Shown: positions 13,569 to 58,362, counted from the first letter of the stretch. The stretch: DNA of 64,000 nucleotides from Patescibacteria group bacterium (GCA_038064675.1 JBBTSM010000003.1:102663-166662); one strand, 5' to 3'. Translations and numbers: made by a program. Notes: generated by a model from the letters alone, not told the origin.

Positions 13569-13739
13569 GGAAATTAGCCAATGAATTAACCAATCAGTAT
13601 AGCAAAAAAATGGCCAAAAGTCAAGGAATTTGGCTAAGATAAAAGGTAAAATAGAATCTAATCTGATCCTGAAATCGATGAAAAAGCAGATCAATGCAAC
13701 GCATCGTGAGCTGCATTAAGGAGGCACTGCTTCGAAATG

Positions 13740-19064: not shown

Positions 19065-19200
19065 AACGTAGTGCCAGTATACCACGATATGTCGTGATAG
19101 AATTGCAACAGCTATGATTAGCCTCCTTCTCTGGGACATCTACGAAATCAGCTCCCCCGCCTCTCTCCAGGGCGTTATGCTTCGCGGTCGCATTACAACG

Positions 19201-37200: not shown

Positions 37201-37662
37201 TGCGGTATAAGACGCCCCCACTCCACTAAACGCAAAAGCGCCCGTATGGGTCACCGTCTGATTGCCTCCGGTAAAGGTACCCGCTGTTTGTGTATATGCA
37301 CCGGTAAACGTGAGCGCGTCCGTACTTCCATTAAATATCGCCGCTCCTGCAAAAGTGGTGACACCGCTTACCGTAAACGAACGAGCCTGCGTAATTGTTC
37401 CAGTATACCCAGAGTTAATGTTGAATGTCGTCACGCCAGTAGTAAAGCTTGCATCGATGGTGGCGTCCTTTGTGGACGTCGCATCAAAGGTGGCGATATC
37501 GGCCGTTGTTGGTGCCGTATCAAGGGACCAGTTAAAACGATCACTCCAATTATTTGTTGAACCTCCGCCGTCCCATGTTCTCGTGGCGGCCATAGCGGAA
37601 TGAACGGAGACAAAAAAGAACATCCCAAAAACGAGGAATGTCCCGAAGAGATATTTCAGCAT
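28246..37662 (-). CDS. giant (~3138 aa) adhesin-like surface protein: signal peptide, PATR/autotransporter-type beta-helix repeats, ~14 tandem ~100-aa Calx-beta/cadherin-like repeats, a Gly14 linker, the shared C-terminal module and a TSP3-like tail
   Basis: Start at internal MLKYLFGTFLVFGMFFFVSVHSAMA. PATR signature TWDGGGSTNNWSDRFNW. Repeat unit VSVISGNTTEAGGTATFTIVL...VTITGVDD. GGGGGGGGGGGGGG stretch. Ends DGDGYTDYIEILNGFDPYTVAPRP. Confidence 0.65.
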   Translation of the reverse strand: MLKYLFGTFLVFGMFFFVSVHSAMAATRTWDGGGSTNNWSDRFNWSLDTAPTTADIATFDATSTKDATIDASFTTGVTTFNINSGYTGTITQARSFTVSGVTTFAGAAIFNGSTDALTFTGAYTQTAGTFTGGNQTVTHTGAFAFSGVGASYTASIGTTIFSSNFTHTAGTGTFSQASGAVNITGGSTRTFDFATSETFNNVTLNKTTATSLTIASGDTMIVTGTSTLTDGNLTTGTWDARGTTSWASTFDGGTGTLLLGGSATVTATLTSGNTAVNLSVTNTSATVNTSGTGTVAVGALTMSAGTFNANTATVTFSGAVALSGGTYNAPTSGSGTTTFSSTFDQSSNGVFVGGINAVTHTGAFTLSGPGATYTATSGTTTFSAGFTHTAGTGTFTHNSGSVRFSGSASTTNVATTETFNNLELAKNGSTLLTVSSGDTLVATGTLTLTNGGFGTGTVEATSTISLNSGWDGGGGILLIDGTNTQNLPLNGGQAALASTVTLNNANFTFSGTGTGTLTFSAVNLQAGTIDATGYAMTFSGAYNQSGGIFTGGSDTVTHSTYTLSSGTYTATSGTTAISTTWTHSGGTYNHGSGTFSSTGGSSTITVVDQDIFYNATFSVTNSNTRTVTGGTLIIAHTFNFSNAGGGALAATLELRGDITGSGSSFPGSRTISLTGTADQVWSIPSGFSGTFTIDKSAGSVTQSTAITVGTFTFTNGTWNTADLGFTPNSTYTHNGGTINFGASSVTLGSVVIAGGTFNATTATMTVNGSWTHTAGGIFNHNNGSVSMNGSNPTINVNFTETFYTLSVNPTSTNTTTISNSDSLIVLGNLSLGGTNGVIAQTTKPAEGTFQLYGNMTVGASIASSAATVGFYGSGTQHFTESSAKALGNFTIDKSGGSLILDSSLDDGNTTTVTVVNGTLDLNGNTINMNASSSKLIINAGGTLKLQGGETITTTGASYPQWDAGSTIYYYGTSGPYTLKNYSGYKNVVIDGTAATTVFTLPATTSIAENLTVSNGILSLAGFGLTVTGTFSNSDTVRLIGSESLSLTQDTDSGAWIYLGDGDAAADTYTLKDFGATDYYNLTIATTDAADIVQSAGAKVIAGTLAISSGTYDANGQTTTSTGLTTVSGGTYTGGSATQTFDAGLTLSGGTYTGSSGTADVNGTLTLTTGTFTAPTLTTISGNFIKGAATFTHNSGTVTFDANANHSITGSPSWNSLTLQDSSDNATDVVLTIEAGSTQTINGTLTLDGLDASDRLNIVSSSPTTASTFDFEGTSSFSGDYLDITDSIVTDNSSGVSAPINPANSVEGTNTTNWFSSTPAGITVSAISGNTTEAGATATFTIVLDTQPASDVVIGISSNDTSEGTVSAASLTFTNANWSTPQTITVTGVNDDLDDGDIAYSIITAAATSADGNYDSLNAADVSVTNTDNDTSGFTVSVISGDTTEAGGTATFTIVLNAQPTASVSIDLSSNDTTEGTVSPSSLTFTTGNWSTPQTVTITGVDDVVIDGNISFSIVTAAAVSDDLLYNAMNPSDVTVVNDDNDVAGVTVSVISGNTTEAGATATATIVLTAQPTADVSVAISSSDSTEGTVSPASVTFTSGNWSVPQTITVTGVNDDLDDGDIAYSIVTAAATSADLNYDGINPANIAVTNTDNDTSGFTLGAISGNTTEAGGTATFTIVLNAQPTASVSVGLTSNDTTEGTVSPSSLTFTTGNWSTPQTVTVTGVDDLIDDGDVVYAIVTAAATSADTNYNGINASDESVTNTDNDTASATASAISGHTSEDEVATATFTVVLTAQPTADVTIPLSSSDATEGSVGVASLTFTSGNWSTPQTVTVTGVNDYLDDGDVSYSALLGAITSADSAYSGLNPADVTIVNDDDDISGFSVGAISGNTTEAGGTATFTIVLNAQPTASVTIDLSSSDATEGTVVASTSFTTGNWNTPKTITISGVDDVIDDGTVAYSIITAAATSSDTNYNGLNPSDVSVSTTDDDTAGITVGTISGNTTEAGGTATFSIVLDTQPTTDVTVGFSSSDTTEGTVQTSKTFTSGNWNTPQTVTVTGVNDDLDDGDIAFTIVTAAASSADSPYNGLNPGDISATNTDDDVSGFTFGAISGDTTEAGGTATFTIVLNAQPTASVTIGLTSSDLTEGTVSPASLTFTTGNWSTPQTVTATGANDSTIDGNIVYAIVTSAATSDDLLYNGINPSDVSVTNTDDDVAAATIGAISGDTTEAGATATFTIVLNTQPTADVTFDISSSATNEGTVLPATVIFTSENWNAPQTITVTGVDDGAVDGPVAYSIVLGAATSADTNYNALDPADVSVINTDNDAVGVSVSPSSGNTTEAGGTATFTVVLNSQPSADVTIPLSSSNEAEGMLSTLSLTFTSGNWSIPQTITMTGMNDVVVDGDVVYAVVLGAMTSTDPAYSELNPTDVSVTNTDNDAASVLVTQSGGASAVTEVGATDTYTLVLSAQPSSDVTVNLTAAAPVATDVSILTFTSGNWNTPQTVTISVTDDVIAQGTHTHSIDHTTYSSDVLFDALVVVSVSVQVADNDVAGITVGAISGNTSEAGATATFTLVLTSEPIADVRIDISSSDATEGTVSASTATFTSVNWNVPQTITVTGIDDVVNDGTVAYNIILATAVSVDAVYAAINPADLSLSNTDNDTPGFTVVQSEDATAVTEGGAQDAYTIVLKSQPTANVSVFMIGDGDVTTSVSQLTFTAENWSTPQAVTVSAVDDSTIEGAEVHSILHVVSSADSTYAALTIEGVPVTVTDNDPVSTGESGGGGGGGGGGGGGTSTSPTISLRKPTANATYGFGAMSVTWVWTGSIPAVNVYLSLDGGATWALQRYFVTNTGSTTITLDQATTTAEVRIEGTDFIQVLARSVSDTFIVSASASTTSNVDPGTIVDDSTASGAAIAEIAARVASLPASVEIHSLVKLSDDSNAESQYDTTVYYVGADGYRHAFPNPHVYDSWFCSEDHVTVLTPSEMASMPIGPNVTYRPGSRLVKFITDPRVYAVDSDGSLRWVLSETDATTIYGSDWNKKVDDIQDVFYRNYHFGAVLTDLAWRAESIYNLVSYPSDVMHVPGYAVTPGLTNACATSEPVTPTIAAPLDSSSTLDSDGDGYTDYIEILNGFDPYTVAPRP
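29540..33830 (-). repeat. about 14 tandem ~300-bp intragenic repeats inside the giant adhesin gene
   Basis: Tandem protein repeats, plus a run of mutually similar antisense ORFs on the plus strand between 29546 and 33826. Confidence 0.6.
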
Positions 37663-37763
37663 ATTTTTCACATGGTTGGATGGCCAGATAATACCGGTTT
37701 CGTGGCTGCTCGAATACCACGTTATACACATAAAATTACAGGATCGAGATACACTACTCGCAT

Positions 37764-38375
37764 ATGGCATCATGGAGCCCCCAAGAACGCTCAATCCTTC
37801 GAGCGCTCTCCACCCCGGCGAAAATTCAAGACTTCTTGAACGGCCTTCGATTCCGGATTATCGGCAAGAATGAGACATGCCATTCCCCTCGTCTGGTGAT
37901 GCGGTATCGGGAAGCACAATGCGTTGAAGGTGCGATGTTTGCGGCGGCCGCGCTCCGATTCCACGGCTATCGACCGCTCATCGTCGATCTCGTTTCTACC
38001 GCACAGGACCAAGACCACGTCATCGCGGTCTTCCAGATTAATGGGCACTGGGGAGCGATATCAAAAACAAATCACGGCGTGCTCCGATATCGCGAGCCTA
38101 TTTACCGATCGATTCGCGAGCTCGTGATGAGTTACTTTCACGAATACTTCCTCCAATCGAATCGGAAAAAAACTCTCCGAAGTTTTTCGAAGCCCGTTGA
38201 TCTCACCAGATTTGATCACCAAGGATGGGAAACAAGTGAAGAACCGATTTGGTATATTCCAGAATACCTCTTATCGATTCCCCACTCACCAATTCTGAAC
38301 CGATCCCAAATTGCACGATTACGTCTAGCCGACCCCATCGAGGCGCAGATGACGGAAATCGTGGAGTGGGAATGA
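37764..38375 (+). CDS. transglutaminase-like cysteine peptidase superfamily protein, transcribed divergently from the giant adhesin
   Basis: EAQCVEGAMFAAAALRFHGYRPLIV...DHVIAVF fits the Cys-His-Asp transglutaminase-like core. Confidence 0.4.
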   Translation: MASWSPQERSILRALSTPAKIQDFLNGLRFRIIGKNETCHSPRLVMRYREAQCVEGAMFAAAALRFHGYRPLIVDLVSTAQDQDHVIAVFQINGHWGAISKTNHGVLRYREPIYRSIRELVMSYFHEYFLQSNRKKTLRSFSKPVDLTRFDHQGWETSEEPIWYIPEYLLSIPHSPILNRSQIARLRLADPIEAQMTEIVEWE

Positions 38376-39035: not shown

Positions 39036-39049
39036 AGAATATAGAGAAC

Positions 39050-39160
39050 TTCCTCATTTGGCCTATTTTCGACTCACGTCTTCGCAAACTTGCTCAACGC
39101 ACCATGAAGTACGCCTCGCAAGCTTTGCTCGCCGTTCATCGAAACTAGTCTCAAATGTGA
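39050..39160 (+). repeat. copy 1 of a ~110-bp MITE-like intergenic element with terminal inverted repeats CCTCATTTGG / CAAATGAG; sits upstream of rplU
   Basis: About 88% identical to copy 2. Same orientation relative to the downstream gene in all four copies. Confidence 0.55.
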
Positions 39161-39185
39161 AAGTTCTGTTAGATTTGTGCTGCTG

Positions 39186-43167: not shown

Positions 43168-43280
43168 CTTCCTCATTTGGTCTATTTTCGACTCACTTCG
43201 TCGCAAAATCGCTCAACGTACCATAAAGTACGCCTCGCGATCTTTGCTCCTCGTTCATCGAAACTAGCCTCAAATGAGAA
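43168..43280 (+). repeat. copy 2 of the MITE-like element, upstream of gene 41808..43157
   Basis: Aligned to copy 1. Confidence 0.55.
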
Positions 43281-43305
43281 ACCCCTAATTTGAATAAATC
43301 ATATC

Positions 43306-46116: not shown

Positions 46117-47361
46117 ATGGCACAGGAACTGGCGGTTACCCACGCCCGCCGGATCCATGCCTTGGATCCGCGCGAGCTCAGAGATATTTTCAGCGATGTG
46201 GTGTGCGAGCCCTACACCACCGTACAGGCGTTGGCATGGGGATCGTACGTACCTGTTGCACAGGTGCGAAAGACGTTTCAGGACATTGAGCACCTCGCAA
46301 AAGACATCGCGCTTCGCGGAATGCTCAATCCGCAAACCGTGTTCGCGTTCCCGCTTCCCGTCGCAGAGCGCTACGTGCGCGCAGTGAACGTGATGTGGGG
46401 AAGCAATCACACCATCGCGGATCTTCCCAGAGGAACGTTCCGCGACGAACCCGTCTGCTTCATTCTCATTGCCGGTGAACGGCGCTTTCGAGCGCTCCAT
46501 CAGCTGTGGATGACGGGATGTGAACGTTGCCGTGAAACACACGGGAACGAGTCCGAAGGAACGTGCTTCTCTCGGCATTTCCCGCACGCGCTCGTACCCG
46601 TGAATCTCAAAGTGGGGTTCACGCCCTACGATGCGCTCACGGACCAATTCGCCGAGAACACCCACCACCGGCCACAGCCGGCCGAGGAAGCTGTGGGTTT
46701 CCGCGTGTTCTACGAGTTGATGCGCGTTCGGGAACCGACGCTTGAGGTGTCCGCATTCGCACGGCGCATTGGGCACAATCCGGAACGCGTTCGCGCAGCA
46801 CTTCGCTACACCACACTCCCGGAGTTCATCCAAGAAGCCGTTACCGAGGGGAAAATTCCGTACTCCAGCGCCCTCGCACTGGAGCGGTACCATCGGGAAC
46901 GCGCATCAGAAGACGAGCTACGGTACTGGCTCCAACGAGCCATTGCAGAAGCGGAAATGTCGGCGCACAGGCTGGAAGAACTTCTTCGGGAGGACATCCA
47001 GCACTGGAGATCGTCGCAACTCGGCTTATTCGGGAGCGCAGTCAACGCACTTGAGAAGACGAAGACGCGCGCAGTGTTCGACACGGCAATCAGTCGAGCC
47101 CTCGATCGCATCAATGGATTTCTTTCACACGCAGTGAATGCGCGAAAGAACGGACTCATTGGCGACCGGGATTCCCCTTTCGCCTCGGGATCGATCGCAC
47201 ACGCAGTCGTCCGGATCTACGATCTTCTCGACGGCATCGTTCCCGCGATTCGTCGCGACCTCACACGACAAGAACAGAAACGCATCGAGGGAACTCGAAA
47301 CGGTCTGAACGACGACATCACGTGGATTCGGGAACGCACCGATGACACGGACGTCAACTGA
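46117..47361 (+). CDS. ParB/Srx-fold (ParB-like nuclease domain) protein, GC-rich
   Basis: N-terminal FILIAGERRFRALHQL (the GxRRxxA motif). Confidence 0.45.
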   Translation: MAQELAVTHARRIHALDPRELRDIFSDVVCEPYTTVQALAWGSYVPVAQVRKTFQDIEHLAKDIALRGMLNPQTVFAFPLPVAERYVRAVNVMWGSNHTIADLPRGTFRDEPVCFILIAGERRFRALHQLWMTGCERCRETHGNESEGTCFSRHFPHALVPVNLKVGFTPYDALTDQFAENTHHRPQPAEEAVGFRVFYELMRVREPTLEVSAFARRIGHNPERVRAALRYTTLPEFIQEAVTEGKIPYSSALALERYHRERASEDELRYWLQRAIAEAEMSAHRLEELLREDIQHWRSSQLGLFGSAVNALEKTKTRAVFDTAISRALDRINGFLSHAVNARKNGLIGDRDSPFASGSIAHAVVRIYDLLDGIVPAIRRDLTRQEQKRIEGTRNGLNDDITWIRERTDDTDVN

Positions 47362-47402: not shown

Positions 47403-48035
47403 TTATTCCCTCACGTCACTCACCGCTTTTTCAACCACCGTCTTCCCCCTTCCTGCCGCCATTGCTCGAAGCACGATGTAAACCACAATGATGATGAAGA
47501 GGCCGATGCCTACCCAACGCAACCCTCGATGAATCGAGCTCCAGAACTGTCCAAAGAAAAATCCAATGGCAAGGTATGACGCGGACCACAAGACACCGCT
47601 CGTGATGTTCATCACCATGAACGAGCGCCATTTCATCTTGAGCGCGCCGGCAATAAACGGAACGAACGGACGGAGTGGACCAATGAATCTGCCAAGGAAC
47701 ACACCGGCTACACCGTATTCGTGCATAAACTTTTCTGCACGATCGACTATGTTTTGTGCAAACAACCGTGGAAAGCGCTTTGCAGGATCAATCCCCTGTC
47801 GGCCAAGAACAAAGCTAAACACGTCGCCGAGAATAGCGCCAATGGCGCCAATGAGAATTGCATCGCCGATATTGTAGATGCCTTGCGAGATAACGAAACC
47901 GAACAGCACAACGAACGTTGCACCTGGAACAAGAATGCCCACAACGGCGATGGATTCCCCGAATGCAAATGCAAACAGCAAGGCGTATGCCCAATTGCCA
48001 AGCTGTGAGATCCAGGGAAGCCAATGATTAAACAT
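47403..48035 (-). CDS. DedA/VTT-domain membrane protein
   Basis: FGESIAVVGILVPGATFVVLFGFV. Confidence 0.55.
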   Translation of the reverse strand: MFNHWLPWISQLGNWAYALLFAFAFGESIAVVGILVPGATFVVLFGFVISQGIYNIGDAILIGAIGAILGDVFSFVLGRQGIDPAKRFPRLFAQNIVDRAEKFMHEYGVAGVFLGRFIGPLRPFVPFIAGALKMKWRSFMVMNITSGVLWSASYLAIGFFFGQFWSSIHRGLRWVGIGLFIIIVVYIVLRAMAAGRGKTVVEKAVSDVRE

Positions 48036-48600
48036 ATTGCGTAGGAGGGTGCTCGAATGTAATCAACGGCATGTGGTTTTTCATGATGTCCTGCGGAATA
48101 CCGAGCTCTTCGAGATACACGGTAGAGACCTCACAGAACTTTGCGTCGGCGTAATTGAATCCAAGAAGTTCCGACGCCGTGCGAACCGTCGCCTCGTCGT
48201 GCGCTTCGACCTCAACAAACGGTCGGAGACCCGGCCATGTGTCGATCGTCACCTCCGCACCGTTCAACATCCATGCCTCGCGCAATGTTTCTTGATACGC
48301 CTTCTTCTCCGCGCCGATTGCCGACAAGAAATCCACAGCGTTGTCGAAATCATCAACCGTCACCATCACTTCTTTCTGATCCTCAATTGCACTACCATTC
48401 ACCACCTTCAACGACATCGTAATCGTCTCCCCCTCGTCGCGAACCCGCATCCAGCCGCCAGGAATAGCAATCGGCGGGTTAAACACCGTTCGCCGCATCA
48501 ACGATTCCTTTTTTACAAGCGTTCCGCCGACTTCGTGAAGCTTTGCCCGTACGGCGCTTTTATCGATCCCCGTAAATGTGGCCTCGAATTCGATTTGCAT
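48028..48600 (-). CDS. CYTH-domain protein (CyaB / thiamine-triphosphatase-like)
   Basis: Internal Met MQIEFEATF matches the N-terminal ExExK/F motif of CYTH. Confidence 0.45.
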   Translation of the reverse strand: MQIEFEATFTGIDKSAVRAKLHEVGGTLVKKESLMRRTVFNPPIAIPGGWMRVRDEGETITMSLKVVNGSAIEDQKEVMVTVDDFDNAVDFLSAIGAEKKAYQETLREAWMLNGAEVTIDTWPGLRPFVEVEAHDEATVRTASELLGFNYADAKFCEVSTVYLEELGIPQDIMKNHMPLITFEHPPTQYV

Positions 48601-48688
48601 AGAATATCCTTGAGGATAGCGCCCCCACGCTCTTCTTGCCAGGGCGCTCTTCAACATGATACGATTCGGCCGTTCTTTTCTGAGTTTT

Positions 48689-48764
48689 GCCGAAATAGCT
48701 CAGCTGGTAGAGCAACGGTTTTGTAAACCGTAGGTCACCGGTTCGAATCCGGTTTTCGGCTCCA
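48689..48764 (+). tRNA. tRNA-Thr (anticodon TGT)
   Basis: Perfect cloverleaf: GCCGAAA...TTTCGGC T CCA; anticodon loop TTTGTAA. Confidence 0.8.
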
Positions 48765-48765
48765 G

Positions 48766-48851
48766 GGGTTGGTACTCAAGCGGTCAACGAGGAGAGACTG
48801 TAAATCTCTTGGCTTGCGCCTTCGAAGGTTCGAATCCTTCCCAACCCACCA
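48766..48851 (+). tRNA. tRNA-Tyr (anticodon GTA), long variable arm
   Basis: GACTGTAAATC anticodon arm; TTCGAAGGTTCGAATCCTTC T-arm; encoded CCA. Confidence 0.8.
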
Positions 48852-48853
48852 TC

Positions 48854-48978
48854 AGAAAAGCTCATAAAATTGCCCAGGGCGTTGTCGTCGCCTTGCGCCC
48901 CGTCCTCACCGTACACTGTGGTACGCCTCGGACGGTGCTCGGCTCCTCCTAGCCCTGAACAATTTTATGAGCTTTTCT
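48854..48978. repeat. a perfect 19-bp inverted repeat (AGAAAAGCTCATAAAATTG / CAATTTTATGAGCTTTTCT) flanking an ~88-nt GC-rich core, directly after tRNA-Tyr
   Basis: Read directly. Could be a MITE-like insertion or a structured RNA. Confidence 0.5.
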
Positions 48979-49044
48979 CATTCACTTTGTGCCGATTCGT
49001 AAGAATTTGAAATGATAAGACCGGAAAAAGTGCTAAGTTTGCGT

Positions 49045-49105
49045 AGTGCTAGGAGCGGCGAGGATCGCAGCGAAACGTACTTCACGGTACGTTGAGCGAG
49101 AACCG
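49045..49105 (-). repeat. copy 3 (core only) of the MITE-like element, upstream of tRNA-Thr(GGT)
   Basis: GTACTTCACGGTACGTTGAGCG matches the reverse complement of the core of copies 1 and 2. Confidence 0.45.
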
Positions 49106-49149
49106 GAGCAAGCAACAACGCAATACGCAAACTTGGGCACATTTTCCCC

Positions 49150-49225
49150 GCCGCAGTAGCTCAGATGGTAGAGCGCATCCATGGTAAGGATGAGGTCTCG
49201 GGTTCGATCCCCGACTGTGGCTCCA
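49150..49225 (+). tRNA. tRNA-Thr (anticodon GGT)
   Basis: GCCGCAG...CTGTGGC T CCA; anticodon loop ATGGTAA. Confidence 0.8.
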
Positions 49226-49228
49226 CAA

Positions 49229-49258
49229 AACATCGACCAATCGGTCGATGTTTTGTTT
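49229..49258 (+). terminator. terminator AACATCGACC-AAT-CGGTCGATGTT plus T-run
   Basis: Read directly. Confidence 0.55.
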
Positions 49259-49375
49259 TAGCGCCTTCTTTACTTTCCCCCATTTTTCTGCCTATACTTC
49301 CCCGTCATGCTTTCGAGCCTGACAGCCCCGTGGCGAGGTTTCGCCGATTGTCCGCGTACAAAATCAGGAGCAGCC

Positions 49376-49954
49376 ATGCTCATCTCGCTTCTTCTCGGTC
49401 TCGCCCTCGCGCCCGAGGCGTCGGCAGCCACGCTGTCGCCGCAAATCCTCATGAAGGTCCACAGCCGGATCCACCTCGAGGGAGACGGCGACTGGGACTT
49501 CGGAGTATTCACAAGCGGGTTGATGATCACGAGCGGATCCCCCCTGTCCTTCTGGTACGTCGGCCCGGGAAAGCAGATCACCCCGTGGTGGTGGTCGAGC
49601 GTTCGTCCCGGCATCGTGTTCAACTTCCCGACCGGGGGCGACGCGATGCCCATCATCTCCTGGTGGAATTCGCTTGATCCCACGGATGATTTCTCGTTCT
49701 TCCTGGAGGGCGACTACTACCCCGTCAGCCTGAAGGGCAGCGATCCCATCTACTACGGGTACTACGGCGCAAGCTACACGCCGAAGATCTTCGACCTGGG
49801 CGTGCAAGCTGAACAGGTAAACCTAAGCCTGACGGCGGGCCCGCACGCCCTCATCAAGCTGGGCAAGTTCATCACCACCGGGGCGGAGTACTACTGGGAC
49901 TTCAAGAAAGGCCACACCGTCCGCATCATCTTCGACGTTGGAGCAGACATGTGA
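49376..49954 (+). CDS. secreted hypothetical protein, aromatic-rich; first gene of the GC-rich islet
   Basis: Internal Met preceded by a CAGGAG Shine-Dalgarno. Signal peptide MLISLLLGLALAPEASAATLS. Confidence 0.45.
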   Translation: MLISLLLGLALAPEASAATLSPQILMKVHSRIHLEGDGDWDFGVFTSGLMITSGSPLSFWYVGPGKQITPWWWSSVRPGIVFNFPTGGDAMPIISWWNSLDPTDDFSFFLEGDYYPVSLKGSDPIYYGYYGASYTPKIFDLGVQAEQVNLSLTAGPHALIKLGKFITTGAEYYWDFKKGHTVRIIFDVGADM

Positions 49955-50027
49955 CGCACCGCCCTCGGTGGCCGGCCACACGGGCCGTCCTCAGTGGGCG
50001 GTTTCGTGTTTTCAGCACCTTGTTTAA

Positions 50028-50056
50028 TTGATTCTTTCGTCATTTCCGTCTACAAT
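50028..50056 (+). promoter_or_regulatory. promoter TTGATT-17-TACAAT followed by the conserved leader GTTTGGTCCGCTCCTTCG
   Basis: Paralogous to the element at 50743-50772. Confidence 0.4.
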
Positions 50057-50131
50057 GTTTGGTCCGCTCCTTCGAGCCGACAACCTGCAGCGAGGATTCG
50101 TTGCTCCATTCTCACACCGCAGAGGTGCCCT

Positions 50132-50668
50132 TTGACGCATTTCATTTCAGATCTTCTTCTTGTTTGCTCCACCGACGAGGCAGAGCATTTCCTTCAGCCC
50201 ATGCTCAACGCGGCACTCGACGTCGTCCTGCCGCTGGCCCAGGTTCTGGACCCCACCGATACGGGCGTCGTGTTCATGTTCTGGCGCATCGGCGACGACG
50301 GGCACAGACCGCTCGTCGTGCTCCGCGGCGGCAATGTGTCGCCCGAGAAGGACGGCTGGTACATGGAGAACGCCATGCGGAAGCTGGCCGCGCTCGCGGA
50401 CAACCCGGGCATCGTCTCCACGGCCGAGGTCGCCAATCCGACCGTCGAGCTCTTCGGCGGCGGCACGCGGCTATTCGACGGGCGCCTCGCCTACATCTCC
50501 GCGGGCCTCAACTCCTGGTTCGACGAAATGGTGGACTGCATCATGGCCTGGAGCATCGGCCACACGACCGTAGCGGAGATGCGCCGCGTGGCGGAGATCA
50601 GTAAGAACCCGCATCTCAACGCCTACCTCGACGACCTCGAAGGGAAGCTCCGAAGAGTGCGACAGTAG
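50132..50668 (+). CDS. hypothetical cytoplasmic protein, paralog A (TTG start, MTHF...)
   Basis: High GC3 in this frame. Homologous to 50847..51386 from the first residues onward. Confidence 0.45.
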   Translation: MTHFISDLLLVCSTDEAEHFLQPMLNAALDVVLPLAQVLDPTDTGVVFMFWRIGDDGHRPLVVLRGGNVSPEKDGWYMENAMRKLAALADNPGIVSTAEVANPTVELFGGGTRLFDGRLAYISAGLNSWFDEMVDCIMAWSIGHTTVAEMRRVAEISKNPHLNAYLDDLEGKLRRVRQ

Positions 50669-50683
50669 CGCACGACAACGCAG

Positions 50684-50720
50684 CCCCGCGACGAGAGCCC
50701 CACGCTCCGGCGCGGGGTTT
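50684..50720 (+). terminator. conserved terminator CCCCGCG-ACGAGAGCCCCACGCTCCGG-CGCGGGG plus TTT
   Basis: An ~75-nt block duplicated at 51400-51436. Confidence 0.45.
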
Positions 50721-50742
50721 CTCAGTTTTAAGGAATTATTCG

Positions 50743-50772
50743 TTGTTTTTTCTCTCAATCTCTGTATAGAAT
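50743..50772 (+). promoter_or_regulatory. promoter TTGTTT-18-TAGAAT followed by the conserved leader GTTTGGTCCGTTCCTTCGGGG
   Basis: Paralogous to 50028-50056. Confidence 0.4.
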
Positions 50773-50846
50773 GTTTGGTCCGTTCCTTCGGGGCCGGGCC
50801 AGGGGCGAACCATCGCTCAGAAACGTATCGTCTAGGAAGGGCTCCA

Positions 50847-51386
50847 ATGACCCCGTACGAACTCATCGATTCCAACGGACCCGAAGCCGAAGTAGCGCTG
50901 CTCGCTGCATTCACACACGCGCTCGGTTGCGTGCTCCCGCATGTGGCTTCCCCCGCCGGGTCAAACGACCCGGAGGTGCTCCTCGCCTTCTACCGGTGGG
51001 AGTCCAAGGATCACGAGCCGAAAGCGTTCCATAGGCGGGCATTCGTCAGCAACGAGGCAGTCCCCAGCGGCTCCGTTCGAGGGCACATCGCGGCCACTGT
51101 CCCGATTGCCCAGGCATTCGGCAGCTACCATCTGGGCGCCTCGTCCCTCCAGGGTCGGGATGAAGCTGCCGGAGTGCTCGGTGGTGGGGTGCGCATCAAC
51201 CGCGATTTCGTCTTCATCACCACCGGCAAAATTCCTGAGTGGGCCCGGGAGATGGTCTCCATCCTGACGGCGGTGAAGCTCGAGCTCTTGAGCCCTATCC
51301 AAGCCCGTCTGATCGCACTCGCCAGCGACAACACACATCTCCTTCGCCACACCTTCGCCCAGGCTGAAACGGAAAAGGAAGGATAG
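50847..51386 (+). CDS. hypothetical cytoplasmic protein, paralog B (MTPY...)
   Basis: AGGAAGG Shine-Dalgarno 6 nt upstream. Shares blocks with paralog A: PEAE/DEAE, VLP, GGG(V/T)R, EMV. Confidence 0.45.
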   Translation: MTPYELIDSNGPEAEVALLAAFTHALGCVLPHVASPAGSNDPEVLLAFYRWESKDHEPKAFHRRAFVSNEAVPSGSVRGHIAATVPIAQAFGSYHLGASSLQGRDEAAGVLGGGVRINRDFVFITTGKIPEWAREMVSILTAVKLELLSPIQARLIALASDNTHLLRHTFAQAETEKEG

Positions 51387-51399
51387 TGCGACAACGCAA

Positions 51400-51436
51400 C
51401 CCCGCGACGAGAGCCCCACGCTCCGGCGCGGGGTTC
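51400..51436 (+). terminator. second copy of the conserved terminator block
   Basis: Aligned to 50684-50720. Confidence 0.45.
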
Positions 51437-51501
51437 TCTGATTTTAAGAAAAATTGTTCTTTCCCCGATTTTTTGCTACGATTCCCCCTTCAAAACTTCC
51501 T

Positions 51502-53289
51502 ATGAAAAAGCGAACAAAAATCATTCTTTCCGTTCTTGGCGTCCTCATTATTGGCGGAATCGCGTACGGCGCGACTCATCAAGGTTCCGGCGTTGTCGTC
51601 ACCACCGAAACTGTAAAACGTGGGGATATTCACCAAACCGTGGAAGTCACTGGCGACACGCAGAGCGTCAAAGATCTCGATCTCGCGTTTAGCACGAGCG
51701 GCATTATCGCCGTCATGAACGTTGCCATCGGGGACACGGTGAACGCCGGCGATACTCTCGCCGTGCTTTCTGAAGCCAAAATCGCCGCAAGCCTTGCACA
51801 GGCTGCTGGCGCCGTGGAACAAGCGCAGGCTGCGCTCGATCTGAAGACTGCAGGATCTGCGGACGAGGAGCTCGCCGTGTACCAGGCTACCGTCACCGCA
51901 GCAGAAGCAAGCCTTGCGAACGCGACCATCGAATCTGAACAAACAAAAACCACTGGCGATACCAATGTCGCAAGCGCAACGGACGATCTTGCTCATATTT
52001 CCTCATCGACCGCCGCAACTCTCTCATACGCACAGCAGGACGAGCTCGAAGCACTGCGCTCGCTTGTTGCTGAAGTACGATCAGCACTGAGCTCGGCCGA
52101 CGCAGTTCTTGGAGTTGAGAACAACCTTGTGAATGTGGATTTCGATCAAGATCTTGGCATCGCCGATCCACAGTCGTTCCCCGATGCAATCGACGCGTTT
52201 GTTGTTGCTGCAAAGAGCCGCGATGCTGCGGAGGACGCGCTCACTATTGCGAGTCTCGAGGACGCGACAACACTTTCTGTTGCGAGCGCCGCTGCACAAA
52301 CTGCGTATACCAACACATATTTCACCCTCATCGCCACCAGCCGTACCCTTGATGCAACAACCGGCGGATCGTCGACGCTCTCGCTCGATGCTCTGGATGC
52401 AATGAAGGTGTCGATTGCTGGCGCAACATCGGCGCTCACTGCAGACGGAAGCGCGCTTACCAATGCAGAGCAGACCCTCGAAACCGCAACGCGATCTGCA
52501 ACGAACGATGTGACCGACGCACAGAATGCGCTTGCAAAAGCGCAGGCGTCGCGTGACCAGAACAATGCAAGTGCCGCGTCTTCCCTTTCACAGCACGTTT
52601 CCGATCTCGCAAAGGCAAAAGCACAGCTTGCGCAAATCGCTGCAACGCCACGCACTGTTGACCTTGCCGGGCTTCGCGCCGCCGTCGCTATTGCCCAAGC
52701 GCAGTACAGCACAGCCCTTGCAGGTGCCGCAGATGCGCAAATCAACGCGCCAATCGATGGTATCGTCACCGCGGTGAACGCAGACGTAGGCGAACAGGCT
52801 TCCGCGGGAACACCGATGATTACGCTTCTTGGAACGTCAGACCAATTTGAAATCGTCATGGACATTCCTGAAGCCGACATCGCAAAGGTCCACGTTGGCC
52901 AACCGAGTATCATCACGTTCGACGCGTTCGGCGACGACCACGCATTCAGCGGATCCGTTCTCAGCGTGAATCCCGCAGAGAAGCTCATCGAAGGCGTCGT
53001 CTTCTACGAAGCAAAAGTCATTCTCGACAATGGCGCCGACGTGAGCGGCGTGAAATCCGGCATGTCTGCAAACGTCACCATCGATACACATGACGTTCTC
53101 GGTGCATTGTTTATTCCAAAACGCGCAATCCTTGAAGACGCAAACGGAAAATACGTTCGTATTCCGAAGGACGACACTGGTGCGTTCGATCGCCGATCAG
53201 TGACAGTTGGCTTGTATGGCGACGATGGTTCTGCAGAAATCTTGAGCGGCCTTTCTGAAGGCGAAACCATTATCGTGACCATCCGATAA
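51502..53289 (+). CDS. HlyD/MacA-family periplasmic adaptor (membrane fusion protein) with a long coiled coil
   Basis: Signal anchor MKKRTKIILSVLGVLIIGG; Ala/Thr/Asp-rich coiled-coil; C-terminal beta-barrel and lipoyl-like segments. Confidence 0.55.
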   Translation: MKKRTKIILSVLGVLIIGGIAYGATHQGSGVVVTTETVKRGDIHQTVEVTGDTQSVKDLDLAFSTSGIIAVMNVAIGDTVNAGDTLAVLSEAKIAASLAQAAGAVEQAQAALDLKTAGSADEELAVYQATVTAAEASLANATIESEQTKTTGDTNVASATDDLAHISSSTAATLSYAQQDELEALRSLVAEVRSALSSADAVLGVENNLVNVDFDQDLGIADPQSFPDAIDAFVVAAKSRDAAEDALTIASLEDATTLSVASAAAQTAYTNTYFTLIATSRTLDATTGGSSTLSLDALDAMKVSIAGATSALTADGSALTNAEQTLETATRSATNDVTDAQNALAKAQASRDQNNASAASSLSQHVSDLAKAKAQLAQIAATPRTVDLAGLRAAVAIAQAQYSTALAGAADAQINAPIDGIVTAVNADVGEQASAGTPMITLLGTSDQFEIVMDIPEADIAKVHVGQPSIITFDAFGDDHAFSGSVLSVNPAEKLIEGVVFYEAKVILDNGADVSGVKSGMSANVTIDTHDVLGALFIPKRAILEDANGKYVRIPKDDTGAFDRRSVTVGLYGDDGSAEILSGLSEGETIIVTIR

Positions 53290-53291
53290 GT

Positions 53292-53963
53292 ATGTCTGCG
53301 ATCATCGAGCTCAAGGATCTTACGAAGACGTACCAGAATGGCGACGTGGAGACGCTCGTGCTTCGTGGACTCAATCTCACCATCGAGTCTGGCGAATTTG
53401 TAGCGCTCATGGGCCCGTCGGGTTCAGGAAAGTCCACGCTCATGCACATCTTGAGTTTTCTTGATCGCCCAACAAGCGGTGCGTACATCTATCGTGATCG
53501 CGACGTTACCGCACTCACCAACGACGAACGCGCAACGTTGCGATTGTCCGACATCGGTTTCGTGTTTCAGGCATTTCATCTTCTACCAAAGCTTACGGTT
53601 CTTGAAAACGTGATGCTCCCCCTTGTATACGCAGGCCTGCCTGCCGCCGACCGAAAACACCAAGCAGCAGAAGCGCTTAATCGTGTTGGGCTGAACGAGC
53701 GTCTCGATTATCTTCCGAATCAACTTTCCGGCGGACAGAAGCAACGCGTCGCCATTGCTCGCGCGCTCATCAACAATCCTTCCGTCATCTTTGCAGACGA
53801 GCCAACAGGAAACCTCGACTCTGTTTCAAGTGAGCAAGTTCTGAACATTCTTGCCGATCTGCATAACGAAGGCCGAACGATTGTGATGGTGACGCACGAA
53901 ACGGAAGCTGCGAGTTTTGCCAAACGCGTCATTCGGATGAAAGACGGTGTCGTCATTGGATAA
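53292..53963 (+). CDS. ABC transporter ATP-binding protein (MacB/LolD type)
   Basis: Walker A GPSGSGKST; signature LSGGQKQRVAIARAL; Walker B IFADEPTGNLD. Confidence 0.75.
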   Translation: MSAIIELKDLTKTYQNGDVETLVLRGLNLTIESGEFVALMGPSGSGKSTLMHILSFLDRPTSGAYIYRDRDVTALTNDERATLRLSDIGFVFQAFHLLPKLTVLENVMLPLVYAGLPAADRKHQAAEALNRVGLNERLDYLPNQLSGGQKQRVAIARALINNPSVIFADEPTGNLDSVSSEQVLNILADLHNEGRTIVMVTHETEAASFAKRVIRMKDGVVIG

Positions 53964-53966
53964 TCT

Positions 53967-55193
53967 ATGCGCCTACCCGATCTCTTCCTCACGTCGTCCG
54001 AATCACTTCGTCGCAATACTTCGCGATCGCTTTTGACGATTCTTGGCATCATCATTGGTATTGCCGCAGTCATCGTGATGCTTTCTATTGGCCAAGGCGC
54101 GCAAGGATACGTGCTCAATCAAGTGGCGAATCTTGGTTCCGACGTGTTGTTTGTAGAAGCAGGGAGCGGTGGCGGTGGCCCGCCTTCGCCATTTACGCAG
54201 CAAACTATTCTTTTAAACGATGCTACGGCACTGGCGAAACACGGACCATTTTCCGTAGTGTCTTCCATCGTCGTCACGAATGCTCCTGTTACCGCGCAAG
54301 AGAACAGCACGTTCACCGATATTGCCGGAAGCGATGAATACCAACTCGACATCTTCCCCGCCGAACTCGCATCGGGACGGTTCATCGATCACGAAGACGT
54401 ATCATCACACGCTCGCGTTGCGGTACTTGGATGGGATATCGCAAAAGATCTTTTTGGCGATCAAGACCCAATCGGCGAACGCGTAACCATTAAAAATCTT
54501 CCTGCACGAGTCATCGGCGTTGTCACCCCACAAGGGAGCAAGTTTTTCTCAAATCTCGACACCCGTATCTATATTCCAGTAACAACCGCGCAACGTGAGC
54601 TCCTCAACGTGGATTATGTTTCATACATTTCGATGAAAGCAATCGGCGATGTCGAAATCGCGAAAGACGAAGCGCGAGCGATTCTTCGCGACACCCATGC
54701 CCTCGATAATCCAAATAGCGATCTTGCAAAAGATGACTTCTCCGTGTCTTCACAGAGCGACGCAGTAAATACGATCGCAGGTGTGGGATTCGCGCTCACG
54801 CTTCTTCTTGCGTCAATCGCAGCAATCTCGCTCGTGGTTGGCGGTATCGGTATTATGAATATGATGCTGGTGTCGGTGACCGAACGCACGCGTGAAATCG
54901 GATTGCGAAAAGCCATCGGCGGAACAGAGCGAGACATCCTCGGACAATTCCTCCTTGAGGCCGTCATTCTCACGCTCGGCGGCGGCGTACTCGGCGTTAC
55001 CATCGGCGTCATCGTCTCCTTCCTCGCGTCACTCCTCTTAAAGGCCTTCGTCGACGGCTGGGTATTCGTTATTCCCCCATCCGCAATTGCCGCGTCATTC
55101 ATCGTCGCCACCGTCGTCGGCATCGCCTTCGGCTATTACCCAGCAAAACGCGCCGCGAAGCTCGATCCGATTGAAGCGCTGCGATACGAGTAA
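53967..55193 (+). CDS. ABC transporter permease (FtsX / MacB-like)
   Basis: N-terminal TM segment, a large periplasmic domain, and a C-terminal 3-TM FtsX-like region. Confidence 0.6.
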   Translation: MRLPDLFLTSSESLRRNTSRSLLTILGIIIGIAAVIVMLSIGQGAQGYVLNQVANLGSDVLFVEAGSGGGGPPSPFTQQTILLNDATALAKHGPFSVVSSIVVTNAPVTAQENSTFTDIAGSDEYQLDIFPAELASGRFIDHEDVSSHARVAVLGWDIAKDLFGDQDPIGERVTIKNLPARVIGVVTPQGSKFFSNLDTRIYIPVTTAQRELLNVDYVSYISMKAIGDVEIAKDEARAILRDTHALDNPNSDLAKDDFSVSSQSDAVNTIAGVGFALTLLLASIAAISLVVGGIGIMNMMLVSVTERTREIGLRKAIGGTERDILGQFLLEAVILTLGGGVLGVTIGVIVSFLASLLLKAFVDGWVFVIPPSAIAASFIVATVVGIAFGYYPAKRAAKLDPIEALRYE

Positions 55194-56425: not shown

Positions 56426-56581
56426 ATGTCCCAAGACAACCTGATCAAATTGGAGTGCACAGTCTGTAAATCCTTGAACTACCGTTCTTCAAAGAACAAG
56501 AAGATTCTCAAGGATCGCCTGGAACTGAAAAAGTTCTGCGAAAAGTGCCGAAAGCACCAGATGCACAAAGAAACGAAGTAG
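56426..56581 (+). CDS. rpmG: 50S ribosomal protein L33
   Basis: [51 protein letters not shown]; under 60 aa, so absent from the track. Confidence 0.75.
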
Positions 56582-56608
56582 CCCCAGCTACTTCGTTCTT
56601 TTTTTGCG
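56568..56608 (+). terminator. terminator GAACGAAGTAGC-CCCA-GCTACTTCGTTC plus T7
   Basis: Overlaps the rpmG stop codon. Confidence 0.55.
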
Positions 56609-56671: not shown

Positions 56672-57181
56672 TTGAACATCATCGCCTTCAATCAGAATGC
56701 TCAGCGTGGAGCCGAGGCCACTCTCACCGTCGTCCTTCGCCTCCTCGTGGAGGCCGGAATCACCAACCGCACCGGTGGATTCCTGTGTGTTGGACGCACG
56801 GGAGACAGCGGGTTCTCCTATCCACTCCACCGGAAAATCGGCGAAGTGCCGAACGAGGAAAAATCGTCCCGCTGCGAACAGCTCTCGAAAGAGAAGGTCG
56901 ATCGACTCCGCCGCAGCCGCTCCGATGTCCTCAGTTGGCAGTCACGGTGCGACGAGCGAGGGGAATTCCAGGGCGGCGTTCGATCGGAGTCCGATGGCGG
57001 CGACTACTGGTACGCGGGCTTCTCCGGGCTGCCCGCCGAGGCCGACGAGTGTTTCTGCCTCATCTTCCTCATCCGCATGCGGATGCTCACCTTCGAGGCC
57101 GCTGTGGAGCGGGCGAAGATCAGCAACAACACCACGTTCTTCCGCGCCACGGTCGCGGACCTCCTCCCCCTCACGGCCTGA
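56672..57181 (+). CDS. hypothetical protein in a GC-rich islet
   Basis: Strong GC3 bias selects this frame over three overlapping Arg/Ser/Pro-rich alternatives. Confidence 0.4.
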   Translation: MNIIAFNQNAQRGAEATLTVVLRLLVEAGITNRTGGFLCVGRTGDSGFSYPLHRKIGEVPNEEKSSRCEQLSKEKVDRLRRSRSDVLSWQSRCDERGEFQGGVRSESDGGDYWYAGFSGLPAEADECFCLIFLIRMRMLTFEAAVERAKISNNTTFFRATVADLLPLTA

Positions 57182-57396
57182 ACAGCCGCACACTCACGCA
57201 ACGCCCCGCAGAGAACGAAGCGCCCTGCTCGTTCATCGAGTGGGGCGTTTCCGATTTCAAAAATTCCGCCCTGCAAACGTAAACAATCTTTACAAAAGCC
57301 AAGAAATTGGCTAAGGTTCGCAATGCTAAACGGCAATCCTGCCCAAGGCACCAATCTCCAAATAATCGTTCATGAACGAACGATTGGGAGTGCGAC

Positions 57397-58362
57397 ATGT
57401 GTAAGAAAGTAAAAGACGAAGAGGAAGAAGTAGACATCAACGCCCTCCTCGATTCGTTCATGGAAGATCCGGAGATCACCATCGCGATGCTCAACGAAGA
57501 GCAGGCTGTCCTTCTCCTGGAAGCCATCCTGTCGGACGTCCCCGAGGACACCGATTGGATGCATCTCCTGCGGATGGCCAACGGACTCGGCCGCGCGGAG
57601 AGCGTCGAGCGGTTCCGTAGCATCATCCACGCAGCAAACAACGAACTGCGTCGAAGCGAACTGCTGCGGGCATTCGTGGACTACACCATCAACGATGAAG
57701 GCGTTCAACTCCTCCGGTTCGAGGACGCCATCGCCGCAGGAGTGTTCGACGAACTGATCGTCCACCTCGACCGCAAGACCATCAAGAGCCTCACGAGGGG
57801 AACGCTCGCGCAACCTGTCGTGACCGCGTACTCCGCTGGCCGCATCCAGCGGTTCATCGAAGGCCGTGATCCGAAGCGTGCGTTCGACGAGCTCGTCTAC
57901 TCCGCGACCGCCATCGACGGCTGGCGTCCGCCGTTGTTCGAAAAGTGGGTGCAACGCGTGTGGCAAGCTCACCGCGACAAGGGCCTCGTGCTCGAGCTCA
58001 CGACCGATCCGATGGACTGGCGGAACAACGTGGAGCGCAAAATCACGCGGTTCGGTCGGGTTCGAACCAAGTCAAGGATCAAACACCCTGAAATCCGCTC
58101 CGAAGAAGAATTCGTTCCTCTCTACGAGCTGTGGGATCACTACAGGCGCCCGGCGACTGCCGAAGAACGGAAACTCGACTGGGGAATCGAGAAGACCCTG
58201 TACACGCTTCAGCAGCCGCGGATGTGCACCGCGCCCCCGATGGTCGACCCACCCGGCAACATGATCCGTGACATGGCGTGGCACTGGCACAACGAATCCA
58301 AGGAGCGCAAGCTCCGCGAGTTCTGCAGCCAGCACGGCATCCCGTACACCGATCCGGTCTAG
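57397..58362 (+). CDS. hypothetical protein in a GC-rich islet
   Basis: GGGAGTG Shine-Dalgarno 7 nt upstream; acidic N-terminus. Confidence 0.45.
   Translation: MCKKVKDEEEEVDINALLDSFMEDPEITIAMLNEEQAVLLLEAILSDVPEDTDWMHLLRMANGLGRAESVERFRSIIHAANNELRRSELLRAFVDYTINDEGVQLLRFEDAIAAGVFDELIVHLDRKTIKSLTRGTLAQPVVTAYSAGRIQRFIEGRDPKRAFDELVYSATAIDGWRPPLFEKWVQRVWQAHRDKGLVLELTTDPMDWRNNVERKITRFGRVRTKSRIKHPEIRSEEEFVPLYELWDHYRRPATAEERKLDWGIEKTLYTLQQPRMCTAPPMVDPPGNMIRDMAWHWHNESKERKLREFCSQHGIPYTDPV

Follow-up and report, generated by a model that had tools for sequence, protein, structure and literature searches.

The 64,000-nt stretch of Patescibacteria group bacterium DNA analyzed here (GCA_038064675.1, JBBTSM010000003.1:102663-166662; the whole stretch is called the window, and all positions are counted in it unless another sequence is named) contains a GC-rich islet at 49260 to 51390, just 3' of tRNA-Thr(GGT). 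The islet holds three independent units, each consisting of a predicted promoter, a leader, a single open reading frame (ORF), and a putative terminator; the first encodes a protein termed gene1, and the other two encode parA and parB, members of the par family. Taken as a whole, this locus is best explained as, and probably is, a strain-variable accessory islet built from autonomous cassettes in the chromosome of a groundwater member of the candidate phyla radiation (CPR; Patescibacteria). The segment is flanked by tRNA-Thr(GGT) on one side and by a housekeeping transporter operon of the HlyD/MacB type on the other. Each cassette would be transcribed from a sigma-70-type promoter, begin with a structured 5' leader, encode a single ORF, and end at an intrinsic terminator. 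Cassette 1 would produce a Sec-exported protein of approximately 19.5 kDa, predicted to fold into a 12-stranded porin-like barrel, while cassettes 2 and 3 would produce two anciently diverged cytoplasmic par proteins.

All coordinates in a first-pass annotation, made by a model from the sequence alone, were verified, and its GC-rich islet directly after tRNA-Thr(GGT) and the tRNA terminator, its independent promoter-ORF-terminator units, and its signal-peptide protein rich in W/Y/F were all recovered. The islet ORFs have a GC content of 61.3%, compared to 51.5% in the remainder of the window. Individually, they reach 61 to 64%, with a GC content at third codon positions (GC3) of 0.74 to 0.86, in contrast to 52 to 55% and a GC3 of about 0.55 for the neighboring HlyD/ABC genes. 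The 2-kb segment starting at 49500 marks the GC peak of the entire 64 kb (0.6055; mean, 0.518; standard deviation, 0.027). In every host seen, the barrel and par genes are GC rich, even on contigs of 41 to 47% GC.

Features of the islet and its flanks (positions in the window; R1 and R2 are the leader and hairpin models, respectively)
Feature	Position	Strand	Details
tRNA-Thr(GGT)	49150-49225	+	ARAGORN; Rfam, 63.4 bits; conserved left anchor of the variable locus
tRNA terminator hairpin and T-tract	49225-49260	+	perfect 14-bp inverted repeat at 49225-49256
gene1 promoter, TTTACT-18-TATACT	49269-49298	+	promoter scan; T-tract/TGC-TAYACT form
Leader copy 1 (gene1)	49299-49350	+	R1, 59.2 bits; covariation
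gene1	49376-49954	+	ORF, 192-aa precursor
gene1 intrinsic terminator	49955-50012	+	long GC hairpin followed by TTTCGTGTTTT; -31.2 kcal/mol, z -2.5; terminator scan
parA promoter, TTGATT-17-TACAAT	50028-50056	+	promoter scan
Leader copy 2 (parA)	50057-50107	+	R1, 50.4 bits; predicted fold
parA	50132-50668	+	ORF, 178 aa, TTG start, predicted cytoplasmic
par-type 3' hairpin, copy 1	50676-50732 (core 50684-50717)	+	R2, 84.2 bits; -26.9 kcal/mol
parB promoter, TTGTTT-18-TAGAAT	50743-50772	+	weak -35; read from the sequence; within the 33-nt repeat
Leader copy 3 (parB)	50773-50822	+	R1, 42.8 bits
parB	50847-51386	+	ORF, 179 aa
par-type 3' hairpin, copy 2	51392-51448 (core 51400-51433)	+	R2, 83 bits; -29.4 kcal/mol
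HlyD-type membrane-fusion gene and promoter	51469-53289 (ATG 51502)	+	promoter TTTTTTGCTACGAT; Pfam HlyD_3/HlyD_D23; conserved right anchor
MacB-type ABC ATPase, permease	53292-53963, 53967-55193	+	Pfam ABC_tran, MacB_PCD, FtsX
parC	56672-57181	+	169 aa, TTG start; family profile E 2.4e-30
parC terminator	57194-57262	+	distant relative of the par-type hairpin; R2, 18.5 bits, E 8.5e-4

As the first-pass annotation had stated, parA and parB are paralogs with flanks far better conserved than their coding parts. The two proteins share 25% amino acid identity (E = 2e-6), whereas the two copies of a 63-nt repeat around the 3' hairpin (50673-50735 and 51389-51451) have 87% identity, rising to 100% in a core of 34 nt, and a 33-nt promoter/leader repeat (50042-50074 and 50758-50790) is 85% identical. 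Both repeats are spaced 716 nt apart, and each flank motif occurs exactly twice in the 64 kb, against 0.00 to 0.01 occurrences expected. The equal length of 631 nt from promoter to hairpin in the two units was dismissed as a coincidence of small compensating indels, the start codons being offset by 715 nt and the stop codons by 718 nt. In related sequences (numbered with an L, and homologous proteins with a P), the hairpin core, CCCCGCGACGAGAGCCCCACGCTCCGGCGCGGGG, is identical in L003 and L011/L013 to both copies of the islet. It is invariant beside ORFs that are 25 to 72% identical, and the chance of 34 identical bases at 63% neutral identity is approximately 1.5e-7.

To explain this pattern, it had been proposed that a complete promoter-gene-terminator unit was recently duplicated in tandem and that the coding part then diverged very rapidly under diversifying selection. 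This scenario accounts for two detectably homologous genes in units of the same layout and for the common spacing of both flank repeats. However, the four-fold degenerate sites of parA and parB are saturated at 18.5% identity (n = 27), while positive selection on the amino acids would leave them similar. In codon alignments, the same sites are 63% identical between parA and its L003 ortholog, 48% between parA and L004a, and 40.5% between parB and P0012. Furthermore, parA has one relative (P0002) at 72% identity, whereas parB is closest to another lineage, with P0012 as its nearest relative at 34.5% (nothing closer was found); P0012 itself is 38% identical to parA. With the hairpin core invariant in other genomes too, we consider the duplication scenario very unlikely and did not retain it. 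The saturated four-fold sites and a core that is invariant beside par genes of 34 to 72% identity imply that the ORFs are old and that the flanks are conserved or exchanged modules; parA and parB thus appear to be anciently diverged paralogs. In the accessory-islet explanation, the flanks would outlast the ORFs for two reasons: functional RNA elements would be kept across species, and recombination would replace ORFs between conserved regulatory modules.

The islet behaves as a cassette-like, strain-variable locus, as judged from its sequence, because the space between the same tRNA and hairpin is occupied by different genes in a sister genome. This genome is represented by three Logan contigs carrying P0012 (L011, L012, and L013). 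At the left end, positions 1 to 84 of L012 match 49176-49259 at 97.6% (the 3' half of tRNA-Thr(GGT) and its terminator), and blastn homology stops at 49259, such that the variable segment begins 35 nt past the end of the tRNA. At the right end, homology resumes at 51391: L011 1121-1179 matches 51391-51449 at 98.3%, and L013 853-986 matches 51391-51524 at 88.8%, a stretch that includes the hairpin as well as the promoter and start of HlyD. Between these anchors, the sister genome encodes a 99-aa membrane protein and P0012, which replace the barrel, parA, and parB. The absence of the islet beside the same tRNA in a relative, raised as a check in the first-pass annotation, is thereby observed at the tRNA/HlyD junction. 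Identity therefore drops from 98% to saturation within approximately 10 nt of the par stop codon. The islet junctions are not an assembly artifact, since two independent assemblies (L001 and L002) are 99.95% identical over 47583-54892. Proteins identical to those of the islet were found in ENA assemblies from Hainich aquifer well H41 (0.1-um fraction).

Other loci display a mosaic of the same modules. In L004, a set of par, 199-aa, barrel, and par genes abuts the other tRNA-Thr (94% match to 48632-48734, inverted). A single terminator is located 3' of the 99-aa gene in L011 and 5' of the barrel gene in L005, and the promoter of the parA ortholog in L003 is of the gene1 type. L005 is homologous to the window from the -10 T-tract (49283) through the terminator. 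Complete expression units would thus be swapped beside the tRNA, with no recombinase found nearby. The 199-aa family, which has no Pfam match and is absent from the window, is encoded convergently to the par gene at L003 894-1004(-) and L004 889-1488(-); these two genes were judged homologous by eye from their similar C termini (...LTKAL...).

The covariance model of the par-type hairpin, R2, was built on five copies and scores the unseen copies of L011 and L013 at 82 bits. Both islet stems are strong, with z-scores of -2.4 and -4.3. Differences seen in the two L004 copies are A-U or G-U in place of G-C and one co-deleted pair; 74 of 74 cells are paired. In the loci examined, this hairpin lies 3' of par-clade genes only. 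It appears to be under selection for sequence as well as structure, and may have a role beyond termination, for instance as a protein-binding site or a recombination handle. In the terminator scan, the sole call at these hairpins was the inner portion of copy 2. The gene1 terminator is kept in L005 and L004, and some of the L004 differences can be read as stem preserving. The terminator tail GGTGGGCGGTYTCGTGTTTT is common to several cassettes and in part reflects a style general to this genome. A general style of this kind, named earlier as a possible refutation, was rejected for the leader and the par hairpin by scanning the 64 kb with R1 and R2: the only plus-strand R2 match outside the training copies is the weak one at the parC terminator (E < 0.01), and R1 with filters off gives no further leader, the next-best hit scoring 12.8 bits.

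Directly 3' of the -10 element, the leader comprises two short hairpins: a GUC...GAC stem with a UUCG-like loop (CUUC and UUCG loops are predicted) and a GCGA/UCGC stem with a GGUU-type loop. The leader and its UUCG/CUUC hairpin had been predicted on each paralog, but the gene1 copy had been missed. The leader also precedes the par gene of L003 and the barrel genes of L005, L007, and L008. In an alignment of seven copies from five sequence sources, spanning barrel and par genes, RNAalifold recovers both hairpins. After model fitting, pairing extends to 92.6% of cells, with both partners changed in five pairs; none of 500 shuffles attains the value observed, and slid controls drop to 25 to 56% of cells paired. 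The more distant par genes P0012 and P0023 lack the leader, and upstream of P0020 there is only a weak 15.7-bit hit. A search of Rfam, at gathering thresholds and at E-values up to 10, returned only tRNAs and noise. The occurrence of one leader on barrel and par genes hints at post-transcriptional co-regulation or a 5'-end stabilizer. This is reminiscent of 5' untranslated region (UTR) RNA regulons with riboswitch or protein-binding leaders, in which one structured leader likewise precedes separate units, here of two families and with covariation. It differs from known 5'-UTR regulatory RNAs in having no Rfam match and only two short hairpins, and from riboswitch-type regulons in that no expression platform was identified.

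The promoters of the two paralogs had been called equivalent. That of parA was found by the promoter scan, but the -35 element of parB (TTGTTT) matches three of six consensus positions and the site is not among the scan results. The T-tract/TGC-TAYACT style of the gene1 promoter occurs four times in the window, at 13596(-), 38508, 49284, and 51469, and its -10 element is a general promoter form of this genome.

How cassettes of this kind might be exchanged was considered against known mobile systems. If the islet were an integron-type cassette system, the bulged 3' hairpin would be an attC-like site recognized as folded single-stranded DNA. As in integron cassettes, an imperfect palindrome that is conserved and bulged borders the variable ORFs (here, it contains a 1x1 internal loop and a bulged A), close relatives carry different cargo, and the variable cargo ends at the hairpin. 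However, the hairpin has no RYYYAAC/GTTRRRY boxes, each cassette contains its own promoter, and at the observed loci only par-family genes are followed by the hairpin, the barrel and 99-aa genes being without it. Its stem-loop of approximately 38 nt is also below the length of the shortest attC sites. Among the scanned neighbor ORFs (approximately 12 kb on each side, some small ORFs being unscanned), no integrase, transposase, recombinase, or phage family was found. The attC interpretation was rejected on the missing boxes, the lack of an integrase, and the internal promoters, and we regard an integron origin as hardly likely. The islet also resembles tRNA-integrated islands in its tRNA-adjacent position and variable presence among relatives. 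A classic island of this type was rejected as well, with no integrase found and no repeat of 49200-49225 near 51390 (repeats of at least 12 nt).

A prophage remnant, moron array, or plasmid-derived insert would fit the atypical GC content of the segment, the ParB-like GC-rich gene at 46117-47361, and the autonomous promoter-ORF-terminator units, which are the defining feature of morons. Similar to phage morons, each islet ORF has its own promoter and terminator, as predicted at the consensus level, and whole units seem to be transferred en bloc from one genomic context to another. In contrast to morons, they share a structured leader and a sequence-conserved terminator, and no prophage context or phage relatives were found: the PHROGs scan of the three proteins, the IMG/VR searches with both protein profiles and the hairpin pattern, and tblastn against INPHARED phages and PLSDB plasmids all came back empty, and the scanned neighbors include no phage or integrase genes. 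A phage or plasmid source is consequently rated as highly improbable.

The product of gene1 carries a Sec-type signal. Its most hydrophobic 19-residue segment starts at residue 2, and cleavage was assigned by eye to the position after ASA (residue 18); this Ala-x-Ala site is conserved among homologs. The mature protein spans residues 19 to 192 (approximately 19.5 kDa), and the W/Y/F content is 15.6%. Consistent with the earlier statement that no known sequence family is recognizable, Pfam, NCBIfam (E up to 1), PADLOC, and PHROGs assign gene1 to no family. Homologs are limited to five clusters (83 to 40% identity) among 5.8 billion clusters, and one metagenome scan added two barrel loci, both without par neighbors. 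The GTDB genome-contig scan gave no relatives with either the barrel or the par profile, in a collection that apparently lacks the window's own genome. AlphaFold2, run on a six-sequence alignment, predicts an all-beta protein with long up-and-down strands (predicted local distance difference test [pLDDT] score of 82; predicted template modeling [pTM] score of 0.72). Foldseek matches are almost exclusively membrane barrels, with KdgM at template modeling (TM) scores of 0.60/0.67. Across the family, 10 of 11 strands have one face that is 64 to 83% hydrophobic, while the opposite face is polar, Gly rich, and charged, a pattern suggestive of a lipid-facing barrel with a water-filled lumen. The mature protein is thus predicted to be a 12-stranded, porin-like, antiparallel transmembrane beta-barrel. 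This prediction, the most surprising element of the locus, is confident but thinly supported.

The same predicted architecture is found in the KdgM/NanC porins (PF06178; PDB 4pr7, 2wjr, and 8xua), which are small monomeric porins with a Sec signal peptide, assembled by BAM in the outer membrane of diderm cells. However, gene1 shares only 10 to 14% sequence identity with them and has no hidden Markov model match to PF06178, and the sugar-acid utilization genes of the KdgM/NanC context were not seen nearby. Moreover, unlike the hosts of KdgM/NanC, its host is a Patescibacteria metagenome-assembled genome (MAG), from a group described as monoderm on the basis of the few CPR cells studied (PMC8871954). 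In the literature on Patescibacteria, no report of beta-barrel porins was found.

Alternatively, gene1 could be a secreted, soluble, beta-rich protein, such as a carrier of lipids or hydrophobic ligands, in which case the islet would consist of ordinary lineage-specific hypothetical genes with a GC3 raised by high expression. The monoderm description leaves no obvious membrane for an outer-membrane protein, one of the five AlphaFold2 models, all derived from only six sequences, reaches a pLDDT of just 47, and the Foldseek E-values are weak (3.7e-3 or worse). In addition, tRNA or ribosomal genes are found close to barrel genes, together with signals resembling promoters and terminators. The amphipathicity of nearly all strands nevertheless argues against a soluble protein, and a soluble protein of 19 kDa would not usually be expected to form an open 12-stranded barrel whose interior is hydrophobic. 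We therefore judge this alternative unlikely and retain the barrel prediction. In other sequences, barrel-family genes are often located a few hundred nucleotides from tRNAs, including a tRNA-Lys (L006 1214-1288), a tRNA-Gly/Met/Gly cluster (L009 10634-11038), and a tRNA-Thr (L004 1-46), or near an apparent rpsL (L010, approximately 870-1016). This suggests insertion hot spots near tRNAs or placement in highly expressed regions.

The par proteins form an unannotated family without a Pfam model, as far as profile searches indicate. Among 1.84 billion cluster representatives, the family profile recovers 127 proteins at E-values up to 1e-3, of which only four fall below 1e-30, and the family consensus reads roughly SSWQSRD...GGAIR...SFSGLPE..DEA. 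The few named members are all hypothetical proteins of Patescibacteria MAGs, a taxonomy that rests on NCBI names; parB itself is listed at NCBI as a hypothetical protein from a 'Patescibacteria group bacterium' MAG, on a 284-kb contig. Neither parA nor parB is matched by Pfam, NCBIfam, PADLOC, or PHROGs. The structural model of parA has an alpha/beta fold like that of the GlcG/DUF336 superfamily (PF03928), which includes HbpS, the PduO C-terminal domain, EfgA, ORFY, NahX, and yeast Ybr137w, and homology suggests the same fold for parB. The parA model differs in its additional N-terminal (approximately 40 aa) and C-terminal helices, and the sequence-based membership test failed: PF03928 matches none of parA, parB, and parC, and none of the 129 family members scanned matches it or any other relevant Pfam model. 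The superfamily is characterized by homo-oligomer formation and by binding of a small ligand (heme, corrinoid, or formaldehyde). HbpS, PduO-C, and EfgA are small-ligand binders or sensors with the GlcG/DUF336 fold, and the par proteins may act in a similar way, perhaps by binding ligands in partnership with envelope proteins. The best-defined case is EfgA, a DUF336 formaldehyde sensor (PMC8153426).

Further par-family loci were observed outside the islet. parC lies in a second GC-rich patch (56672-58362), 5 kb downstream of the islet. This patch follows a small ORF resembling ribosomal protein L33 by eye (56427-56582) and also holds a 321-aa acidic orphan (57397-58362; GC3, 0.78) without a Pfam match. 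parC may be a syntenic, core copy of the family, as the par-family gene of L018 similarly lies near a tetratricopeptide repeat (TPR) gene. On another Hainich Patescibacteria contig, the par-family gene P0023 has 59.5% GC in a 47% GC background. The same intergenic block is located 3' of both P0023 and an AT-rich ORF of 181 aa that is unrelated to it, with sub-blocks that are 74 to 96% identical (L015 4465-4545 and 5511-5590; L016 896-1140 and 1942-2187; spacing of approximately 1,046 nt). This is a further case of conserved intergenic blocks between unrelated ORFs, and in L015 a tyrosine-recombinase gene adjoins them.

The first-pass annotation had compared the locus to effector/immunity or other conflict modules, in which a secreted pore-forming effector would be paired with polymorphic cytoplasmic immunity proteins. 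The presence of divergent paralogs downstream of a gene for a secreted or envelope protein, the strain variability of the locus, and the small membrane protein that precedes the par gene in the sister genome are compatible with this idea, and a barrel could in principle permeabilize a membrane. However, scans of the three proteins against Pfam, NCBIfam, PADLOC, and PHROGs revealed no toxin, immunity, or defense domain. The predicted barrel has a monomeric porin-type fold that corresponds to no known toxin type, the predicted par fold matches ligand-binding proteins, and soluble cytoplasmic proteins are not the usual form of immunity against pore formers. In addition, barrel genes mostly occur without par genes. 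A conflict module, for which no positive evidence was found, appears improbable, and the strain-variable accessory islet remains our preferred explanation.

Several points weigh against that explanation or parts of it. The sister comparison consists of three short Logan contigs of approximately 1 kb each, with a single alternative cargo seen, and purifying selection on the RNA elements alone could give conserved flanks beside divergent ORFs. The hairpin alignment has five sequences in which 12 of 15 pairs never vary, such that its covariation is modest, as is that of the leader with seven sequences. The U-tract after the par hairpin is interrupted (UUUCUCAGUUUU), although the tail is U rich. 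As for the proteins, the barrel and GlcG-fold assignments derive from AlphaFold models built on six and three sequences, respectively. Sequence-level links are missing in both cases: the six-homolog gene1 profile retrieves no PDB sequence at E-values up to 10, KdgM included, and the par family profile finds no relevant PDB sequence and no connection to PF03928. Finally, a functional partnership of the barrel and par proteins is weakly supported, because most barrel loci lack par genes; the two are adjacent in the window and in L004, or 2 of the approximately 8 barrel loci seen.

The scanned neighborhood consists of DedA/VTT, CYTH, tRNA-Thr/Tyr, the HlyD-type adaptor, the MacB-type ATP-binding cassette (ABC) ATPase and permease, dihydroorotate dehydrogenase, triosephosphate isomerase, an M16 peptidase, and an MraY-like transferase, the rest being unannotated. 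The HlyD-type gene is the first of the MacB-type ABC operon. Its product (51502-53289; 596 aa) has an Ala-rich stretch at approximately residues 110 to 400 that resembles a coiled coil, located between lipoyl-like and barrel-sandwich parts and unusually long for a cell without an outer membrane. The adjacency of the barrel gene to this adaptor looks coincidental, because the sister genome has no barrel at the same position.

Elsewhere in the window, five isolated genes have a raised GC content (0.58 to 0.61; GC3, 0.66 to 0.71) in this 52% GC genome: 11235-11750(-), 20285-21076(-), 27248-27895(+), 43975-44556(+), and 46117-47361(+). Most have no Pfam match, and the last carries a ParB helix-turn-helix domain; they may be part of the same GC-rich accessory gene pool. 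Two giant ORFs encode 3,182 aa (28246-37794(-)) and 1,799 aa (13740-19139(-)), the larger containing at least 13 tandem repeats of approximately 336 nt (112 aa) with 60 to 80% identity. An intergenic element of approximately 114 nt is repeated at 39049-39162(+) and 43168-43281(+) with 89% identity, and a third, diverged copy at approximately 49020-49135(-) lies in the 300-nt spacer between tRNA-Tyr and tRNA-Thr(GGT); the common core is CTCAACGYACCRTGAAGTACG. Its 5' part matches L003 731-779 (83%), just 3' of the par-type hairpin. The element has no match in Rfam and could be a small RNA or a miniature inverted-repeat transposable element.

CPR bacteria represent a large share of bacterial diversity and are thought to be host attached and to lack an outer membrane. 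How they take up metabolites from their hosts is an open question, for which the barrel family, a family of small, Sec-exported, predicted porin-type proteins so far restricted to CPR-like contigs, provides a concrete candidate. One far-reaching scenario, to which we give little chance, is that a CPR cell without an outer membrane exports a self-inserting porin, encoded on cassettes that travel from one CPR genome to another, with the hairpin as their recombination handle. If true, the porin would lodge in the envelope of the host bacterium or in an unseen outer layer of the CPR cell, its channel would serve metabolite scavenging, and the barrel and GlcG-fold sensors would form one leader-RNA regulon. 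More broadly, the locus would represent a variable islet of moron-like units, with two protein families that lack annotation and two RNA motifs that may be new. The leader and hairpin are candidates for cis regulation in a phylum from which very few RNAs have been described, and the locus illustrates at base-pair resolution how reduced genomes may exchange accessory genes.

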